Assembly: GCA_040386275.1 (NCBI GenBank)
Contig: JAZKFU010000008.1
Span: 6,853 to 70,852, forward strand
Origin: Patescibacteria group bacterium
GTDB lineage: Bacteria; Patescibacteriota; Minisyncoccia; Phycocordibacterales; UBA918
Direction: 5' to 3'
DNA length: 64,000 bases
Made by a program: the position numbers and the translations under genes. Shown here one piece after another: positions 3,472 to 18,268 of this stretch. Every line of letters begins with the position of its first letter. Position 1 is the first letter of the stretch. The notes below the pieces were generated by a model. That model did no database searches. It was given only the letters and a program-made list of their open reading frames with translations, and was not told the DNA's origin.

Positions 3472-5037
3472 ATGAGCACCACTATTATTGATCGCATTAA
3501 AAAAGAAATTGAAGCCCTAGACGTGGCTGTTGCTCCCAAAGAAATGGGGGTAGTGACTGCAGTCTCTGACGGAATCATTGAAATCACCGGCCTGACGAGT
3601 GCTCGGATGATGGAGATGGTTGTCTTTGGTGTCGGTGAAGGAGCAACGCTTGAAACTGCGCTCAAGCAAACGACTGTGCTGTATGGTTTGGTATTAAATC
3701 TTGAAGAGGATGTGGTGAAGGTGGTGGTCTTGGGTGAAAGTGCGGGCATTCGTGAAGGAATGACCGTGTTTCGTACAAACACCTTGCTTTCAGTACCTGT
3801 AGGTGACGGTATTGTGGGGCGGGTAGTTAATGCGCTTGGTGAAATGATTGATGGTAAAGGTGCTATTACGACAGATAAGAATATGCCGATTGAACGTGTA
3901 GCCTACGGTGTAATGGATCGCTCGTCGGTAAATGAACCGATTCACACGGGAATTAAAGCGATTGACGCGATGATTCCCATCGGACGTGGACAGCGCGAAC
4001 TTATTATTGGTGACCGCGGTACTGGGAAAACAACCATTGCAATTGATACTATCATCAACCAAAAGTACGAACCAAAAGAGAAACGACCAATTTGTATTTA
4101 CGTAGCAATTGGACAGAAGCGTTCTAAAACAGCGAACATCATGGCCCAGCTTGAAAAAGCCGGTGCGATGGAATACACAACGATTATCGCAACGAGTGCG
4201 TCTGAAGCCTCACCGCTACTTTTCCTTGCTCCGTTTACCGGTATGGCGATTGGTGAATACTTTATGGAACAAGGTCGGGATGTCGTTATTATTCTCGACG
4301 ATTTAAGTAAGCACGCGGTCGCGTACCGACAAATGTCACTCTTGCTCCGTCGTCCTCCAGGACGTGAAGCGTATCCAGGAGACATCTTTTACCTACACTC
4401 ACGTTTACTCGAACGATCAGCAAAGTTGTCTGCTGAACTCGGTGGGGGATCTATTACCGCCTTGCCGATTATTGAAACGCAAGAAGGTGACGTATCTGCG
4501 TATATTCCAACCAACGTAATTTCTATTACCGATGGTCAGATTTTCCTCGAGACTGATTTGTTTAACAAAGGAATTCGTCCAGCGCTTAACGTCGGTATCT
4601 CGGTATCTCGGGTAGGTTCTAGTGCACAAACTAAAGCCATGAAAGCCGTAGCCGGAAAGATTCGTCTTGAACTCGCACAATTCCGAGAGCTCGAAGCCTT
4701 TATGCAATTTGCGTCTGACCTGGATGCTGATACTAAAGCGCGGATTGATAGTGGTCGCAAGTATGTCGAGATGTTGAAGCAAACGCAAAACAACCCGATG
4801 CCGTTCTACAAACAAGTAATTTCAATTTATGGAGCTAACACTGGACTCTTCGACGGCGCTGATCCAAAAAACGTACGCGCTATTGAAGATGCGTACCAAG
4901 CCTTTATCGAGCGAGATCGAAAAGCGACGCTTGATGCGGTAGAAAGTACGCGCGCCTTGTCAGACGAACTAAAAGCTGATCTCGACAAATCAATTGTAGA
5001 TTTCAAAGAAGCCAATAGTAACTTGTATATTGCGTAA
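3472..5037 (+). CDS. atpA: ATP synthase F1 alpha subunit
   Basis: Walker A GDRGTGKTTIAIDTIINQK and alpha-subunit signature regions. Confidence 0.95.
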   Translation: MSTTIIDRIKKEIEALDVAVAPKEMGVVTAVSDGIIEITGLTSARMMEMVVFGVGEGATLETALKQTTVLYGLVLNLEEDVVKVVVLGESAGIREGMTVFRTNTLLSVPVGDGIVGRVVNALGEMIDGKGAITTDKNMPIERVAYGVMDRSSVNEPIHTGIKAIDAMIPIGRGQRELIIGDRGTGKTTIAIDTIINQKYEPKEKRPICIYVAIGQKRSKTANIMAQLEKAGAMEYTTIIATSASEASPLLFLAPFTGMAIGEYFMEQGRDVVIILDDLSKHAVAYRQMSLLLRRPPGREAYPGDIFYLHSRLLERSAKLSAELGGGSITALPIIETQEGDVSAYIPTNVISITDGQIFLETDLFNKGIRPALNVGISVSRVGSSAQTKAMKAVAGKIRLELAQFRELEAFMQFASDLDADTKARIDSGRKYVEMLKQTQNNPMPFYKQVISIYGANTGLFDGADPKNVRAIEDAYQAFIERDRKATLDAVESTRALSDELKADLDKSIVDFKEANSNLYIA

Positions 5038-6555: not shown

Positions 6556-7953
<1,398 letters not shown>

Positions 7954-7956
7954 TCT

Positions 7957-8202
7957 ATGGCAAAACTGTTACAACTCTCTATATCTAAAGTTGATGCGTC
8001 GGTCTTTGATGGTCCGGTTGTTTCGGTGACGGTACCGGGGACAGAAGGGGAGATGACTATTTTGGCGGACCACACTGCTCTTATATCAGTGTTAAAACCG
8101 GGAGTGATTACCCTAATAGCCGAAGGGGGTGCTACACAGACTTTTGAAACTGCCGGAGGTACTCTGGAAATCAGTAACAATCACGCAACGGTATTAATTT
8201 AA
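7957..8202 (+). CDS. atpC: ATP synthase epsilon subunit, N-terminal beta-sandwich domain only (81 aa)
   Basis: 4 bp after atpD; sequence resembles epsilon N-domain; no C-terminal helical hairpin is encoded. Confidence 0.75.
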   Translation: MAKLLQLSISKVDASVFDGPVVSVTVPGTEGEMTILADHTALISVLKPGVITLIAEGGATQTFETAGGTLEISNNHATVLI

Positions 8203-8266
8203 CAGCACTATTAATTGGAGGGAAACTAAGCCTACCTCAAACACTATACCCAATTAGATTTTAGGT

Positions 8267-8295
8267 AAAACCTTCCATTCGAATGGAATGTTTTT
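8267..8295 (+). terminator. rho-independent terminator after atp operon
   Basis: aaaaCCTTCCATTCgAATGGAAtgttttt perfect hairpin plus T-run. Confidence 0.6.
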
Positions 8296-8347
8296 ACTTT
8301 GAAATTTTTCTATTAAACTCTGCGTAGTAAGAGTATAATTACAATAT

Positions 8348-8977
8348 ATGGATAAAAACCAAGTTACGATGATTGCAGTGGGAGCGGGTATTGTTGGTTT
8401 GCTCGTGGGTATGGCTGTTACTTCACTCGGTGATGCAGGGCGAGGAGGTAATCGCGAAAAGCATGAAGATAAAATGGGCATGATGGAACACCGTGATGAT
8501 GAAATGGGGATGGATCACTCTGGTATGGCGATGGAAAGTAACCGTGTAGAGAGCGAACGGGAATTTATTACCGAAATGATTCCACATCATGAAGAAGCGA
8601 TAAAAAGCGCCCAAGAAGTATTAGTGCGAGGCGGAACCACGCCCGAAATCAGAGCCTTAGCCCAAAATATTATTACCACGCAACAGGTTGAGGTAGATAG
8701 TATGAAAGCTATGTTTAAAGACTGGTATGGTGCTGACTATAAACCAGAAGGTAACTATGAAGCCATGATGCGCGATGTGCGTAGTCTCTCGGGAGTGGAA
8801 CTTGATAAAGCATTTTTGACCGACATGATTATGCATCACGAAATGGCTATTACTATGTCTAATGACGTGACCCCACACCTCGTCCATGAAGAACTAAAGA
8901 CGCTTTCAACGAATATCAAAACGACGCAAACCACTGAGTTAGAAACCATGAAAAAGCTCTTGGAAACCCTTAACTAA
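8348..8977 (+). CDS. DUF305 family metal-binding protein with His/Met-rich N-terminal linker
   Basis: N-terminal TM segment; two copies of the DUF305 MIPHHEEAI / MIMHHEMAI motifs. Confidence 0.7.
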   Translation: MDKNQVTMIAVGAGIVGLLVGMAVTSLGDAGRGGNREKHEDKMGMMEHRDDEMGMDHSGMAMESNRVESEREFITEMIPHHEEAIKSAQEVLVRGGTTPEIRALAQNIITTQQVEVDSMKAMFKDWYGADYKPEGNYEAMMRDVRSLSGVELDKAFLTDMIMHHEMAITMSNDVTPHLVHEELKTLSTNIKTTQTTELETMKKLLETLN

Positions 8978-9030
8978 CTATTTTTAAAAAAATGCTATAC
9001 TCCCCATACCATCTATAGAGGAGATGACAC

Positions 9031-9219
9031 GTGAAATTGTTCCTAAGTACTTTCCTGACGTTGGCAATCCAGACAGCGTCAGCACAGGCTTCATGTCCGG
9101 AAGGGCATATCAGCTGTGAGGAAGCAGCGCGACTCAATGGCGCCGCCAAAATCATGGGTATGATGACCGGGACCTCAATACCCACCATCCTCAACTGCGA
9201 AGAAACCACCACTTCATAA
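9031..9219 (+). CDS. small secreted Cys-containing peptide (62 aa; GTG start, RBS agaggag)
   Basis: Signal-peptide-like N-terminus, four Cys residues, strong terminator directly downstream. Confidence 0.3.
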   Translation: MKLFLSTFLTLAIQTASAQASCPEGHISCEEAARLNGAAKIMGMMTGTSIPTILNCEETTTS

Positions 9220-13201: not shown

Positions 13202-14323
13202 ATGTCACTTTTTACTTTTAACTCAAAATTTATGAATCAGGCTCTTTCTAAAAGCACTGCTTTTACCATTGCGCTGTGTCTCTTCGCTTCATTTGCATCA
13301 TTTGCAGTGCCGGCTGAAGCTGCTACCGCAAAACCTACCTGTACGCTAGCGTTTAGTTATGACGGCAAGACAGGTCAAACCAAATATGATGAAGAAATTT
13401 CTATCCTCAAAAATACTCCCATCACACTTGTCTGGAGTAGTAAAAATGCTACCAAGGCTATCGATGGAGATCGAAACACCGTGGCTACATCTGGAACTGC
13501 TACCGTCACACCAGCCGTTAAATCAGAGTATGCCTATACCTTTAGTCAGGGTAGTAAAAAGGTAACCTGTAGTGTGGAAGTGAGTATTATTTCTGGCACC
13601 ATTACTACCAAAACCGTAGCTAAAAATGGTGAAAAAATTAACCTAACCGGGAAAGTAACCGGTGTTAAAAAAGTAGCGGTAGTAGTGTATGCCGAAGGCA
13701 CCACCACCCCTGCCTATACCACCAAAGCCCTGTCGGTAAAAAACAAAAAATATAGTTTCAAAATGCCGAAGGCCTTGCCTGATGGAAATTACCGAATTGT
13801 GCTACAAACAACTGGTACAGCACCCGTAGTGCTCGCTTCTAGTACCTTGGCTGTTGGGAAAGTACAACCGCTTGCGCAATCACACTTGGTGGTAAAAACT
13901 ATTCCGTTACTCGTTGGTGGTACCGCCAAAGTGGGGAGTAGTGTAGCGGTGTCATACATCCAAGTTATTAACGTTGGTACCAAGCCCGCCAACCTGACTG
14001 GATTTACCTTTGCCCAAAATGGTACCGCTCCGGTGACTGCAATTGCCGGTATGACGATTAAAGATGAATCAGGGTTAATTCAAGGGTCAGTGGGGACTAT
14101 GGTAACCGGTACACCATTTGTGGGAACGAGTGCCGCTATTCCGGTAACTGCTACCTTGGCACCAAAAGAATCACGACTCTTTACGGCTCGGGCAGTGGTG
14201 AGTCCAACTGCCGTAGCAAACGTTGGACAAACTATGTCTTTGTCACTGCAAGCCATAACGGGTGATGCAAAAGTACAAAGTTCACTGCCACTTGCCGGTG
14301 TTACGTGGACGATTGTTCAGTAG
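13202..14323 (+). CDS. secreted Thr/Val-rich hypothetical protein (likely beta-sandwich surface protein)
   Basis: Signal peptide (…SFAVPAEAA), low-complexity T/V/G-rich body, perfect terminator downstream. Confidence 0.55.
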   Translation: MSLFTFNSKFMNQALSKSTAFTIALCLFASFASFAVPAEAATAKPTCTLAFSYDGKTGQTKYDEEISILKNTPITLVWSSKNATKAIDGDRNTVATSGTATVTPAVKSEYAYTFSQGSKKVTCSVEVSIISGTITTKTVAKNGEKINLTGKVTGVKKVAVVVYAEGTTTPAYTTKALSVKNKKYSFKMPKALPDGNYRIVLQTTGTAPVVLASSTLAVGKVQPLAQSHLVVKTIPLLVGGTAKVGSSVAVSYIQVINVGTKPANLTGFTFAQNGTAPVTAIAGMTIKDESGLIQGSVGTMVTGTPFVGTSAAIPVTATLAPKESRLFTARAVVSPTAVANVGQTMSLSLQAITGDAKVQSSLPLAGVTWTIVQ

Positions 14324-14337
14324 TCACTTATATAAAA

Positions 14338-14374
14338 TAAAAAGGGGGCCCGACAATGTCGGGCCCTTTTTTAT
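14338..14374. terminator. bidirectional terminator aaaaaGGGGGCCCGACAatgTCGGGCCCtttttt
   Basis: Perfect GC-rich hairpin between convergent genes. Confidence 0.7.
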
Positions 14375-14844
14375 GGTCGAGTAAATTTGTGAACGGTTTC
14401 TTCCATCACATCTTCAACGTGGACTTCAGCCTCGCTTTCGAAATCAAATACTCCAGCCATGATGCACGCGATCTTCCAGTCTTCCATGACCATTCGGTTG
14501 CTACGGGATTTCTTCCGTATTTTTGAAACAGACTGGTAGACAATTTTTTCTAGTTCCGCCACTTTTGTGGCGATTAAATCATCCAAGATGCGAATGGCGT
14601 GCTCACCCTCATCGGTATCCCATTCGTATTCTTGTGCTAGGCCGTACACCGTATCGCGACTAAGCATCATGAGAATAGATTTCAATGTTTGCTTAGTAAA
14701 TTGGCGATGATACTGATGGTGAAGGTGGTCAGGCTTCGAAATGGCTGAAAAAATCTCAGCACACAAATTAAGTATGATCTTCCCGTGAGAGTCCCGACTA
14801 TAGATTTCAGGAATCCCTATCACTTCCCAGACGCTTTTGTCCAT
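14371..14844 (-). CDS. hypothetical protein (157 aa)
   Basis: ORF only. Confidence 0.45.
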   Translation of the reverse strand: MDKSVWEVIGIPEIYSRDSHGKIILNLCAEIFSAISKPDHLHHQYHRQFTKQTLKSILMMLSRDTVYGLAQEYEWDTDEGEHAIRILDDLIATKVAELEKIVYQSVSKIRKKSRSNRMVMEDWKIACIMAGVFDFESEAEVHVEDVMEETVHKFTRP

Positions 14845-14942
14845 CGACGTGCCCTCGTGTTTTTATGACTGTCCACTACCTAGAGTGCCAAAATTATAGG
14901 TTTTTGGCAAGGTCAAAGGTTTAATTCCATAAACTTGCTATT

Positions 14943-16214
14943 TTGCGTGACGCTGGCATAATTTTGATAATATTATACTCATTAATAGAGATTATAGTGA
15001 TAATTTTAAAACACGGAACAATTGAAGCGGTTGAACTGGATAACGAGGTTTTTAAAACTTTGTTGGGTTTTTATCCTGAGGAAAATTTGGTTGAGTATCG
15101 TCTTTTTAAGGGTCCTATGGAAAAAGGTTCGATGACAATAACCGAGCTAAAGGACGCCAGTGAAAAAATTCACCTTCCATGGCAAATGTTCTTGTTAGAT
15201 ATGGTTAATCTAGAAAGAGAATTAAAAAATATTGAAGATAATCGACTTGATAAGTTCCCTAAAGGTACTTTAGAGATTCATAAGAGAAAAGGCGCTGGTT
15301 GTATTACCTCAAAACGTATTATAGACAGACAAATCAGAATTCAGGCGTTTGTAACTTCTCAGCTTCCAGCCAATTTTATTTGTGATTTTGTTGGTTCTCT
15401 GAAAAATAAAACAGTTGACCATGCAGTCAAGCATATCATTGAATATTTCCAAATCAACCTTAATCATTTTCGTACTTATGATGAAGCAGAGAAGGCGAAG
15501 AATTATTTGATCTCTCGTATACAGTCAAAACAAAACATAAATGTTGCCCAAGGGGTGCGAACAAATGGTATTTTACCTGAAATTAAAAATACTTTAGAGA
15601 TTTATAGAAATACGAGTGGTTTTGTGGTGCAAGACAAGAAACTTCCATTCATCTTTTTGCCAAGTGAAATAAATCCTGACGAAAATCATTATCGACAAAT
15701 TTACACCCTTCTTTATTTATTGGTAGTAGTTGGTATGAATGAGTTTTCTCACGCAATTGAAAATTACTCAATTAAGAAAATTAGAGAGGACAAAAAATTT
15801 AAAAAAATTAACATGATTGTTTCTGAGCTGTTTTTGCCGTCTTTAGTTACTAATACCCTAGATCAAAAAACGATAGATAAAGAAGCGATCAATAAATTGA
15901 AGATGGACTATAAGTTATCGTACTCTGCTGTGCTTTATGTCCTAAGAATGAGAAAAGTTATTGATGCTGATTTGGCTAAGGAGCTCGATTTGCCCAAGAG
16001 GCAACCTAGTAAGGTTAAAGAAGCTGTTGAATCAGCAAAGACATATTTCTCTCATCCTCACATTACTACTTCAGTTAAAAAATTCTGCGGGGACGTAGCA
16101 ACAGTAAGTATAAATACTGCTATTAGAGATGGACTATACCCTAATCGAAGTCAAATGATTGTGTTTGGTCGACCTAGAAAAGATAAATGGATTGAGCTCC
16201 GTTCAAGAATATGA
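14943..16214 (+). CDS. hypothetical protein of the AT-rich island; possible degenerate ImmA/IrrE (M78)-like domain. True start may be the internal Met at about 15115
   Basis: Segment VVVGMNEFSHAIENY…(about 25 aa)…SELFLPSLV resembles the M78 HExxH…E..F..L.P core but reads NEFSH, so it is probably inactive. The 3' end overlaps the next gene (ATGA). Confidence 0.45.
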   Translation: MRDAGIILIILYSLIEIIVIILKHGTIEAVELDNEVFKTLLGFYPEENLVEYRLFKGPMEKGSMTITELKDASEKIHLPWQMFLLDMVNLERELKNIEDNRLDKFPKGTLEIHKRKGAGCITSKRIIDRQIRIQAFVTSQLPANFICDFVGSLKNKTVDHAVKHIIEYFQINLNHFRTYDEAEKAKNYLISRIQSKQNINVAQGVRTNGILPEIKNTLEIYRNTSGFVVQDKKLPFIFLPSEINPDENHYRQIYTLLYLLVVVGMNEFSHAIENYSIKKIREDKKFKKINMIVSELFLPSLVTNTLDQKTIDKEAINKLKMDYKLSYSAVLYVLRMRKVIDADLAKELDLPKRQPSKVKEAVESAKTYFSHPHITTSVKKFCGDVATVSINTAIRDGLYPNRSQMIVFGRPRKDKWIELRSRI

Positions 16215-16675
16215 AAATAATCGATATGAACATTATTAGTAAGTATTGTGCTGGGGAAATTCAGGTTGATTTTACTGATCCGGTGTACGTTACTTCAGAA
16301 CTTAAGGATGAAATTGAAATACACAAAGCGTCTTTTCCAGGTCATCGTACAAAACTTCAAGGGATAAAGTTTGTAGATATTGAAATGTATCAATATCCTG
16401 GCGGAGAACATTTTGATGAAGCAAAATATTTATTCCATTACAAAAAACTTATTAATAAATATACCAAGATCACTTCATTCTACGGCCTAAAAGGTGTGGG
16501 CGATATGTCTATCTTGGCAGCTGTTGCAACACTTTTGGGTCGAAATAATCCATCTTTATTCGATGCACAAGAATCAATTGAAGTTATGACTCATGATATG
16601 GATTTAAAAGTAGCATTAACTGAAGAATTTGGAGATTTAATAGTTGTCATTGATCCGCTCACATTACAACAATAA
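16211..16675 (+). CDS. hypothetical protein, PIN-like nuclease fold suspected
   Basis: N-terminal IIDMNII motif, internal acidic residues, GDMSILAAVATLLG…THDMD pattern similar to PIN D…ilAaA…TrD; translationally coupled to the upstream gene. Confidence 0.4.
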   Translation: MKIIDMNIISKYCAGEIQVDFTDPVYVTSELKDEIEIHKASFPGHRTKLQGIKFVDIEMYQYPGGEHFDEAKYLFHYKKLINKYTKITSFYGLKGVGDMSILAAVATLLGRNNPSLFDAQESIEVMTHDMDLKVALTEEFGDLIVVIDPLTLQQ

Positions 16676-16781
16676 AACCAACAACAGCCCTCGGGTTTTT
16701 ACCCTCAAGCATCACAATAATCTCGTCTAGAAAAATAGGAATAAAATAGACCCGTATAGGTACTTCAGGTATACTCCAAAT

Positions 16782-18044
16782 ATGCCCGAAAAACGTTATG
16801 TGTTTAGAGTTAAGGAAAACAAACTCTATATAGTCTATATTGCTGAAGATGTAACTTGGGTGTTTGGTAATCTGGAACTTTCGGGCTCTGCTAGTCTGCG
16901 AGGAAAAGTTTTTACCGTTACAGGGGGTGAGATACTGAGTGGGGTTGAGCACTTATCACAAGAAGCAGAATTTCCAATAGGAAAAAAGGAAGGTGAGTAT
17001 TATAAAATTAGTCCTCAGATATTAAGTACTCAAAAACCTATTTTTATACATGAAAGTGTAATTGACGATTTTGAGCCCGAAGATTTTTTCGTAAGGCAGC
17101 CTTATTTTGAAAGAACTGCTGGTGACGGTTCTTCAATAGGAGTTCAAAATGAAAAATTTATTCCGATTTTCCCAGTACTAGAAAAAATGTTTGACGAAGT
17201 GTTGCGTATAGGAGGAGAGGAAGAAAATAGCATACCGTTAGAGGTGTTTAAAAAAGCCATTAGTGTTTTACCTGATAGAAAAGAAGTTAAAAGATATCTT
17301 GATGCAAGAATTGCACATATTATTGGTGAGTACATAACACCAAAAAGAGATTTTGACACTCATCACGAAAAGTTAATTGCACACCGTGAAGCACAACTAA
17401 CAAGGAGAAATTTAACTCCAACTCTGTTCCAAGAAACTAAAGAATTAAAAAAGGAAATTTTTCAGATTGCGTATGATGAACTTAAAAGGATGCTTAATGG
17501 CAATCTAGTAACTATACCTGAAAGTGAATGGCAAGATAAAATTTTGGACATCATATTACTTCTGTACCCCAAATACGTTCACAAAGAAAAGTCTGTGGAA
17601 GTCATTAAAGATCAAGGGTATGGTTTGGTCGATATTATGTTATTTGATGCTGCAGGATTTGTTGATTTGATTGAAGTTAAGAAACCTGAGGTAAATGGGG
17701 TGGGCGTGCTTAGAAAAGCTTTGTACCGTAAAAACTACGTACCGAGCAGAGAACTATCTGGTGCAATAATGCAGGTTGAGAAATATTCATTTTGGTTGTC
17801 TAGGTGGGGTAAAAAAGGAGAGGAAAAGATTCAGCAAAAATATGCGAACGAACTACCAGATGGTATGAAAGTTAAAATAGCGAATCCAACGGGAATAATT
17901 ATCTTCGGGCGAGATGAAGATTTCAACGAAGAAGAAAGACAGGATTTTGAGGTGATAAAAAGAAAATACAAGCATGTGGTCGATATATTGACCTATGATG
18001 ACTTACTAAGGAGGATTGCAAACATAATCAACATACTAGAATAA
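16782..18044 (+). CDS. Shedu-like (DUF4263) PD-(D/E)xK nuclease-domain protein
   Basis: C-terminal region GLVDIMLFDAAGFVDLIEVKKPE … ELSGAIMQVEKYSFWL … GIIIFGRDEDF…VVDILTYDDLLRRI matches my recollection of DUF4263 hallmarks (D…iElK, QxxxY, viiGr, iTYDdLl). Confidence 0.55.
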   Translation: MPEKRYVFRVKENKLYIVYIAEDVTWVFGNLELSGSASLRGKVFTVTGGEILSGVEHLSQEAEFPIGKKEGEYYKISPQILSTQKPIFIHESVIDDFEPEDFFVRQPYFERTAGDGSSIGVQNEKFIPIFPVLEKMFDEVLRIGGEEENSIPLEVFKKAISVLPDRKEVKRYLDARIAHIIGEYITPKRDFDTHHEKLIAHREAQLTRRNLTPTLFQETKELKKEIFQIAYDELKRMLNGNLVTIPESEWQDKILDIILLLYPKYVHKEKSVEVIKDQGYGLVDIMLFDAAGFVDLIEVKKPEVNGVGVLRKALYRKNYVPSRELSGAIMQVEKYSFWLSRWGKKGEEKIQQKYANELPDGMKVKIANPTGIIIFGRDEDFNEEERQDFEVIKRKYKHVVDILTYDDLLRRIANIINILE

Positions 18045-18268
18045 TAAGACAACCTAATTGGGGAGGTTGAGTATTTCACAAGACATACTTAGTTTAGCAG
18101 GGTATTTTTTTTACCCCTCTCTAAACGGCGCTTTTTGCAGGAATCGAACCTTTGTCAATAAAAGTATATACTTAAATAAGGGTCACTGAATCATGGACTT
18201 CAGAAAGTATCTACCTATCTATTTCTAAACGCTCTTTTAACAAAATGTAAAGTTCATTCTAATTAAGT

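Follow-up and report, generated by a model that had tools for sequence, protein, structure and literature searches.

A probable composite defence islet in a Patescibacteria genome: a Shedu nuclease gene beside a pseudo-ImmA and PIN-fold gene pair

When three adjacent genes share a strand and an unusual base composition, do they constitute a single defence system or separate systems that have come to lie side by side? The question is raised by an AT-rich island at positions 14905-18160 of a 64,000-nucleotide stretch (termed the window here) of contig JAZKFU010000008.1 (positions 6,853 to 70,852; assembly GCA_040386275.1). The complete contig is 282 kb in length and belongs to a metagenome-assembled genome (MAG) of the Patescibacteria (candidate phyla radiation, CPR); proteins identical to those encoded by the three genes are present in NCBI records. 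A preliminary description, made from the sequence, had placed in the island three co-directional open reading frames (ORFs), all of which are intact, i.e. gene 1 (14943-16214 as a maximal ORF), gene 2 (16211-16675) and gene 3 (16782-18044). It proposed that gene 3, a Shedu-like nuclease, is partnered by a module comprising genes 1 and 2. That three-gene partnership is not supported. The segment is probably a horizontally acquired composite defence islet, where two independent cassettes lie side by side at a former tRNA-Arg-adjacent hotspot, one being Shedu and the other a pair of genes resembling a toxin-antitoxin (TA) or abortive-infection module.

The island is divided into two blocks of DNA homology when compared with related loci by blastn. 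Block A (14933-16680) contains genes 1 and 2 together with the promoter-like region before them, and is 80-82% identical to stand-alone pair cassettes at loci L001 and L010; the homology begins at 14933-14934. Block B (16761-18106) contains the Shedu gene and is 78% identical to Shedu loci L012 and L014. In the junction of approximately 80 bp between the blocks (16681-16760) nothing matches the DNA that flanks either cassette in the relatives. We assembled 29 distinct loci containing gene 1 homologues, including the window, and annotated them using family hidden Markov models together with Hsd and Shedu seeds. Shedu lies next to the pair in none of the 28 other loci, so that the window is alone in having it. 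Conversely, the pair is missing from all three contexts of close Shedu homologues (L012 and L014 at 80% identity, L013 at 57%).

The three genes might nevertheless be one integrated system, a new multi-gene variant where the pair of genes 1 and 2 regulates or licenses Shedu. They lie close together on a common strand and have a common low GC content, no clear terminator is present in the 106 bp separating gene 2 from Shedu, and the two-gene KELShedu (PMC12577705) shows that Shedu can have partners. We regard this as very unlikely, given an association in just one of 29 pair loci and in none of the three close Shedu loci, separate homology blocks with an unrelated junction, and a pair that is preceded by a promoter-like region of its own and is autonomous in other loci. 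Moreover, gene 3 is a full-length protein of the EcSduA type, and EcSduA works alone in E. coli (bioRxiv 10.1101/2023.08.10.552762). In KELShedu a DUF4263 nuclease likewise has an upstream partner gene, but there KELA binds double-stranded DNA and is complexed with the nuclease, whereas here the upstream genes are an autonomous cassette found elsewhere without Shedu. Besides the description of the two-gene KELShedu, the occurrence of Shedu in defence islands and restriction-modification (R-M) loci is already documented, with 602 of 5,499 Shedu genes lying inside R-M loci (Gu et al., bioRxiv 10.1101/2023.08.10.552793).

By its sequence, gene 3 (16782-18044, plus strand; 420 amino acids) is a type I Shedu nuclease (SduA) of the canonical, single-gene EcSduA kind, ordinary and already annotated (the NCBI product name is 'Shedu immune nuclease family protein'). 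It has the type I architecture, with a long N-terminal region followed by a C-terminal PD-(D/E)xK nuclease domain (residues 246-409). The protein matches Pfam PF14082 SduA_C (E 2e-33, 116.3 bits against a cut-off of 27), the PADLOC SduA model PDLC00388 (E 2.4e-106, residues 125-419), a PHROG (E 4.8e-68) and, using phmmer, the solved E. coli SduA (PDB 8ps4; E 7.4e-58, residues 123-419). These matches bear out the original assignment to DUF4263/Shedu, although the domain matched is PF14082 and not PF13588, which had been named as the DUF4263 accession. All six active-site residues are kept, with E247, Q251, D284, E298, K300 and Q331 of gene 3 corresponding to E226, Q230, D269, E283, K285 and Q314 of EcSduA (residue list from bioRxiv 10.1101/2023.08.10.552762; the chain numbering of PDB 8ps4 is offset by +3). 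The catalytic aspartate is D284 within the sequence VDIML, not the D of DLIEVKK. Homologues are present as single genes across many phyla; full-length ones with 35-38% identity are found in Proteobacteria, Planctomycetes, Nitrospirae and others. The homologues with 80% and 57% identity have different surroundings, from which genes 1 and 2 are missing, in keeping with the single-gene occurrence of Shedu.

Gene 3 falls in the same length class as EcSduA (PDB 8ps4; Loeff et al.), for which sensing and nicking of DNA ends have been demonstrated (bioRxiv 10.1101/2023.08.10.552762). By homology, gene 3 should form a tetramer whose N-terminal clamp recognises free double-stranded DNA ends, and should nick near the 5′ end. 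However, the first ~120 residues of gene 3, whose host is a Patescibacteria MAG, are left unaligned by phmmer, and therefore the end-sensing clamp may differ in detail.

We note two further arrangements around Shedu relatives. L014:3-4360 is an array of hsdM, Abi_C, hsdS and SduA, where the Shedu gene (80% identity) begins 2 bp after hsdS. There is no hsdR downstream; Shedu occupies the place expected for the restriction subunit and is followed by tRNA-Arg(TCT). At L013:3535-4179 a small ORF and a PIN gene (PF01850, weak) form a VapBC-like pair ~0.8 kb from the 57%-identical Shedu; this pair is unrelated to genes 1 and 2 and its PIN family is a different one, so that Shedu is again found near a PIN gene.

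The drop in composition first reported between 14.9 and 18.05 kb is real. The GC content of 14905-18160 is 0.348, the lowest of the window, compared with a mean of 0.437 (standard deviation 0.011, minimum 0.402) for 543 segments of equal size elsewhere in the window, i.e. z ~ -8. GC at third codon positions is 0.24-0.29 in genes 1-3 and 0.36-0.48 in the flanking genes. Since in addition the gene 1/2 pair has a lower GC content than the DNA around it in 25 of 26 loci, the low-GC segment behaves as foreign, horizontally acquired DNA. It could alternatively be native AT-rich core DNA under a compositional constraint of its own, which would sit well with the lack of an integrase, of flanking direct repeats and of an intact tRNA, and with a synteny comparison around the neighbouring Zn-peptidase gene where no locus was syntenic beyond the query gene. 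Yet such an origin is extremely improbable in view of the size of the GC deviation (z = -8), the presence of the same cassettes in unrelated contexts of other genomes, the sharp ending of the homology blocks at the cassette edges and the remnant of tRNA-Arg at the right edge.

This remnant marks the right end of the island. Downstream of Shedu there is a terminator-like hairpin (CAACCTAATTGGGGAGGTTG; 18050-18069, plus strand), identified by a scan and from alignments, that is positionally conserved with the terminator after Shedu in L012 and L014 and after gene 2 in L010. The hairpin and the spacer that follows are collinear with L012 and L014, where the invariant sequence AGGAATCGAACC is the T-arm of an intact tRNA-Arg(TCT) (4447-4520, minus strand, in L014). 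In the window the collinear segment at 18127-18156 (minus strand) is a decayed 3′ part of tRNA-Arg comprising the acceptor 3′ strand and T-arm; 21 of 31 bases are identical to the 3′ end of the L014 tRNA, and the T-stem is broken. No tRNA gene was found in the window by ARAGORN, which covered all 64 kb, or by Rfam, and at the right edge of the island neither detected a tRNA or any other non-coding RNA. Shedu in L012 and L014, like the pair in L010, is succeeded by this terminator, spacer and tRNA-Arg; the relic therefore marks a tRNA-Arg-adjacent hotspot. An island that targets tRNA for integration would have an integrase, with an intact tRNA bordering it on one side and a direct repeat of the tRNA 3′ end on the opposite side; here there is just the decayed remnant.

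In L010 the terminator and spacer that follow gene 2 are the same as those in L012 and L014. They lead into a 20-bp copy of a tRNA 3′ end, with an intact tRNA-Arg(CCT) located 200 bp further on (7953-8025, minus strand). The two copies of the direct repeat (7749-7768 and 7949-7968) match at 19 of 20 positions, and this looks like an att-type scar of integration at the tRNA.

The island had earlier been considered to be bounded by a 17-bp inverted repeat with a T-arm-like right copy. The resemblance to a T-arm was right in substance, as the right arm coincides with the tRNA relic; it is identified as such because it is collinear with the 3′ end of the intact tRNA-Arg in L012 and L014. The match of 14 out of 17 also stands, with the left arm at 14912-14928 (plus strand; sequence confirmed) and the right arm at 18140-18156, one base removed from the 18141-18157 given before. 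The repeat itself is rejected as an element terminus. It is absent from all 68 related loci, an inverted match of at least 14/17 arises in 11 of 200 shuffles (5.5%) of the two intergenic regions and is thus marginally unusual, an even better chance match to the right arm lies inside gene 1, and the right arm is the tRNA remnant. The left arm is just outside block A; it is probably a chance match that belongs to neither cassette, and its pairing with the right arm coincidental. No direct repeat of at least 14/17 links the two intergenic regions of the island.

Turning to the first cassette, gene 1 resembles ImmA in its fold, while failing to show its defining catalytic feature. The maximal ORF starts at 14943. 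The start in NCBI is a GTG at 14997 that agrees with the ~400-residue family alignment, and is more likely to be the biological one, giving a protein of 405 amino acids (14997-16214, plus strand). The structural model (pLDDT 89.7, pTM 0.89) has an M78 fold, and the best structural matches are to PrpR/RamB-type regulators and to CapP/IrrE (PDB 6cyj, 7t5t and 8sln) with sequence identities of 10-13%. The M78-like core comprises approximately residues 185-315 (15549-15941, plus strand). There are 117 homologues of ~400 residues, nearly all from Patescibacteria, of which four are labelled 'ImmA (M78)' by JGI. The window protein has no match to PF06114. Weak Peptidase_M78 matches were obtained for 17 of 55 relatives, the highest score being 20.5 bits where the cut-off is 22, and no second family turns up repeatedly. 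In the family member P0088, positions 21-122 of the Peptidase_M78 profile align to residues 205-313.

The family has no zinc site. The motif H[ED]xxH is present in one of the 117 members, where it lies outside the M78-like region, and there is no conserved histidine, no column of the alignment having more than 51% His. Lacking a zinc site, gene 1 therefore cannot act as a protease. The location of HEXXH was mapped indirectly because searching PDB sequences with the gene 1 profile and with two of the most M78-like members gave nothing relevant. Conservation, secondary structure and the P0088 alignment make the helix RQIYTLxYLLVV (residues 233-244) its more likely counterpart. A SELxLP motif, downstream of this helix in the core, appears to resemble the family's E..LLMP motif. 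The preliminary description had anticipated an M78-like, non-catalytic protein, and the fold and the missing HEXXH uphold this. It had read NEFSH as an HEXXH in which the first His is replaced; this mapping is probably wrong and was rejected, as the columns are variable within the family (D/E/N, E/Q/K and Y/H/F). An XRE-type helix-turn-helix (HTH) was undetectable by sequence, and there were only weak matches to three-helix bundles. In the case of CapP and IrrE, an active zinc protease cleaves an HTH repressor. Gene 1 has additional helical domains at its N- and C-termini. In PrpR the M78-like fold serves as a ligand-sensing, not a proteolytic, domain, and this would be a precedent for a non-catalytic role of gene 1, the predicted partner, antitoxin or sensor of the PIN protein.

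At residues ~94-116 of gene 1 (15276-15344) there is a strongly conserved basic motif KRKGxGxxTSKRIIDRxIR in which R107 and R111 are invariant. It lies partly in a loop modelled with low confidence, and is a candidate for a segment that binds nucleic acid or plugs the PIN active site. The gene 1 homologue at L039:8001-9198 is split into overlapping ORFs (8001-8570 and 8503-9198) with an intact PIN gene downstream; it is probably either a frameshifted pseudogene or an assembly error.

Gene 2 (16211-16675, plus strand; 154 amino acids) has a PIN fold. Its acidic tetrad D5, E34, D98 and D129 is intact, and across 72 representatives D5 and E34 are invariant while D98 and D129 are conserved in at least 90%. 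An exhaustive profile search of 1.84 billion representatives found 81 relatives, all of about 145-150 residues. Gene 2 has no match in Pfam at E<=10, including PF01850, PF13638 and DUF4411 (PF14367), nor in PADLOC, NCBIfam or PHROGs; four of the 72 relatives match PIN_4 weakly (best E 0.0023), and none matches DUF4411. The earlier suggestion that gene 2 is PIN-like is thus confirmed by fold and by conserved acidic residues, though not by a Pfam profile. It is predicted to be a PIN (VapC-like) ribonuclease that acts as an effector or toxin and has a complete acidic active site. The profile searches with genes 1 and 2 also gave a match to an IS4 transposase, which was set aside as noise because it scored 16.9 bits (E 0.0027) where the cut-off is 115.

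Genes 1 and 2 are found together wherever the contig permits. They overlap by the sequence ATGA at 16211-16214, and such a 4-nt stop/start overlap recurs in 27 of 29 loci, so that they have the paired and coupled two-gene organization of type II TA modules. The conserved 5′ region of the cassette (14933-14996, plus strand) contains a putative promoter at 14935-14962, TTGCTA separated by 16 nt from TG-CATAAT; the hexamers were found by a consensus scan, and are invariant in a three-way alignment with the stand-alone cassettes of L001 and L010.

The pair is mobile, and its surroundings are frequently those of defence genes. In 12 loci it separates hsdS from hsdR within a type I R-M operon. One of these (L011) is the closest relative of the window pair, with 87% amino acid identity, and its downstream ORF encodes HsdR. 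Elsewhere the pair follows hsdR (L032) or an SLFN-like helicase (L036), or else it adjoins a type ISP R-M enzyme (L026), a STAND/AAA ATPase (L027) or large serine recombinases (L024, L025, L033, L035 and L037). The remaining loci are among housekeeping genes. The family is essentially confined to Patescibacteria, and gene 1 homologues are absent from 72,556 plasmids and 50,697 phages. The contigs of L025, L031, L038 and L027 are binned as Flavobacteriaceae, Methylophilus, Rhizomicrobium or candidate division FCPU426, representing either mis-binning or transfer beyond the CPR; in L031 the GC content is 0.346 in the pair and 0.526 in the flanks. A crowded locus of embedded cassettes is seen in L005 (3159-4860 and 7743-8615), where a type I R-M operon contains the pair together with a DUF2321 protein, three unannotated ORFs and an upstream Bro-N protein.

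We propose that the two cassettes would work independently, their adjacency reflecting the clustering typical of defence islands. Cassette A (genes 1 and 2) would be a translationally coupled module of TA-like or abortive-infection type. The pseudo-ImmA protein most likely binds the PIN protein, to whose synthesis its own is stoichiometrically coupled, keeps it inactive and serves as a sensor of infection; a phage cue or depletion of the gene 1 protein would then release the PIN nuclease.

The frequency of the hsdS-hsdR slot suggests a different role, whereby the pair guards type I R-M in the manner of PrrC or Ronin. The Hsd complex would keep the pair silent, and its PIN RNase would fire once the R-M enzyme was disabled by an anti-restriction protein of a phage; the copy in the window would be an orphan whose R-M partner has been lost. 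In support of this, the pair lies within a type I R-M operon, or immediately behind one, in 13 of 28 informative loci, and almost always occupies that slot; there are also precedents in PrrC/EcoprrI (PMC1484252) and Ronin (bioRxiv 10.1101/2023.04.06.535777). Against it, hsd genes are missing from the vicinity of the pair in about half of the loci (the window, which has no hsd match anywhere, is one of them), and the stand-alone copies are intact with a conserved promoter-like region of their own. Furthermore, the space between hsdS and hsdR is a hotspot where unrelated cassettes of many kinds insert, DarTG2 being one (PMC12255303), and therefore embedding does not imply functional dependence. 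A guard function is attractive for the embedded copies and unneeded for many stand-alone ones; as an account of the pair in general we think it rather unlikely.

We give a similarly low likelihood to the pair being a selfish addiction module, which would stabilise mobile islands and R-M operons through post-segregational killing and have no anti-phage role. The two-gene, translationally coupled, TA-like architecture would be as expected, and so would the patchy and mobile distribution, the association with serine recombinases and the consistently deviant GC content. However, the neighbours are preferentially defence genes and not genes for the maintenance of plasmids or integrative and conjugative elements, there is no homologue in the plasmids or phages searched, and a multidomain partner of 400 residues is far larger than a simple labile antitoxin. 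Addiction and defence are not mutually exclusive.

A bolder proposal, which we consider less likely still, is that the pair represents an undescribed Patescibacteria-specific family of infection-triggered RNase defence. The dead protease fold would act as a decoy or sensor, for instance for phage anti-restriction proteins or for proteins targeting ImmA-type proteases, releasing the PIN ribonuclease; in the window it would back up Shedu and not an R-M enzyme. This would explain the strong preference of the pair for the hsdS-hsdR slot.

Several points weigh against the composite islet that we favour, with its independent Shedu and TA-like cassettes. The genes are co-directional and the 106 bp from gene 2 to Shedu contain no convincing terminator, so that the three may be co-transcribed and may to some extent influence one another's function. 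The comparison was made with 28 other pair contexts and just three close Shedu contexts. Neither an integrase ORF near the island nor direct repeats flanking it were found. Using the flanking Zn-peptidase as query, metagenome contigs gave 29 loci of which only L040 (75% identity) was at all close, and none was syntenic beyond the query gene. Lastly, genes 1 and 2 have no profile match in Pfam, PADLOC (PADLOC-DB v2.0.0, E<=1), NCBIfam or PHROG, and therefore their role in defence is read from context and fold. The toxicity of the PIN protein, its neutralisation by gene 1, an RNA target, a trigger and anti-phage activity are all inferred.

The pair is a divergent member of the known class that combines ImmA/COG2856 and PIN proteins. 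Modules of HTH-COG2856 with PIN have been predicted to be three-component TA systems (Makarova 2009, PMC2701414; Matelska 2017, PMC5499597). In these an ImmA-fold protein (ImmA/IrrE, DUF955) of ~400 residues is likewise followed by a PIN-like protein (DUF4411, COG2405, PIN_14/20/26) of ~150 residues in one operon, and they are similarly mobile, patchy and linked to defence islands. The present pair differs from them in having no HEXXH or conserved His, no XRE HTH detectable by sequence and no match to PF14367 or PF01850, and in being essentially restricted to the CPR. ImmA-domain antitoxins linked to PIN toxins also occur in RosmerTA defence systems (RmrT/RmrA, the 'ImmA antitoxin' node of NetFlax; PMC10440598), sharing with the pair an ImmA-domain antitoxin or sensor, swappable toxins that include PIN-like proteins and an association with defence. 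In contrast to gene 1, where the site is dead, RmrA retains a presumed-active protease domain; in the present family the ImmA-like gene is always first, and no PADLOC model matches gene 1 or gene 2 at E<=1.

Defence or TA cassettes are known to be embedded in the hsdS-hsdR gap (PMC12255303; bioRxiv 10.1101/2024.01.29.577857), examples being PrrC in EcoprrI (PMC1484252), DarTG2 (PMC12255303) and the 'guilt-by-embedding' candidates (bioRxiv 10.1101/2024.01.29.577857). The same slot holds the pair in its 12 embedded loci, and the close Shedu relative of L014 sits directly after hsdS. The proteins of the pair are nevertheless unrelated to PrrC and DarTG, and the cassettes of the window lie outside any R-M operon.

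Outside the island we note a perfect G+C-rich hairpin (GGGCCCGACA / TGTCGGGCCC) at 14340-14372, between the convergent genes 13202-14323 (plus strand) and 14371-14844 (minus strand). It looks like a bidirectional terminator, and weak, sub-threshold Rfam matches to small RNAs at this position are most likely caused by the hairpin alone.

The locus is of modest interest overall, the Shedu gene itself being already known. It illustrates how two cassettes that are usually carried in R-M operons can come to share the site of a decayed tRNA. Of more use is the gene 1/2 family that recurs in the hsdS-hsdR slot and comprises about 120 ImmA-fold and about 80 PIN-fold cluster representatives, the proteins of which are mostly hypothetical or unnamed in the sources and are invisible to Pfam, PADLOC, NCBIfam and PHROGs. 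Within the ImmA-PIN class, first predicted in 2009 and hardly tested, gene 1 would be a natural example of a pseudo-enzyme that serves as antitoxin or sensor. The genomes of CPR bacteria are tiny and their immune repertoires poorly charted; to these a conserved module of a dead protease and a PIN protein would add a candidate defence or TA family.

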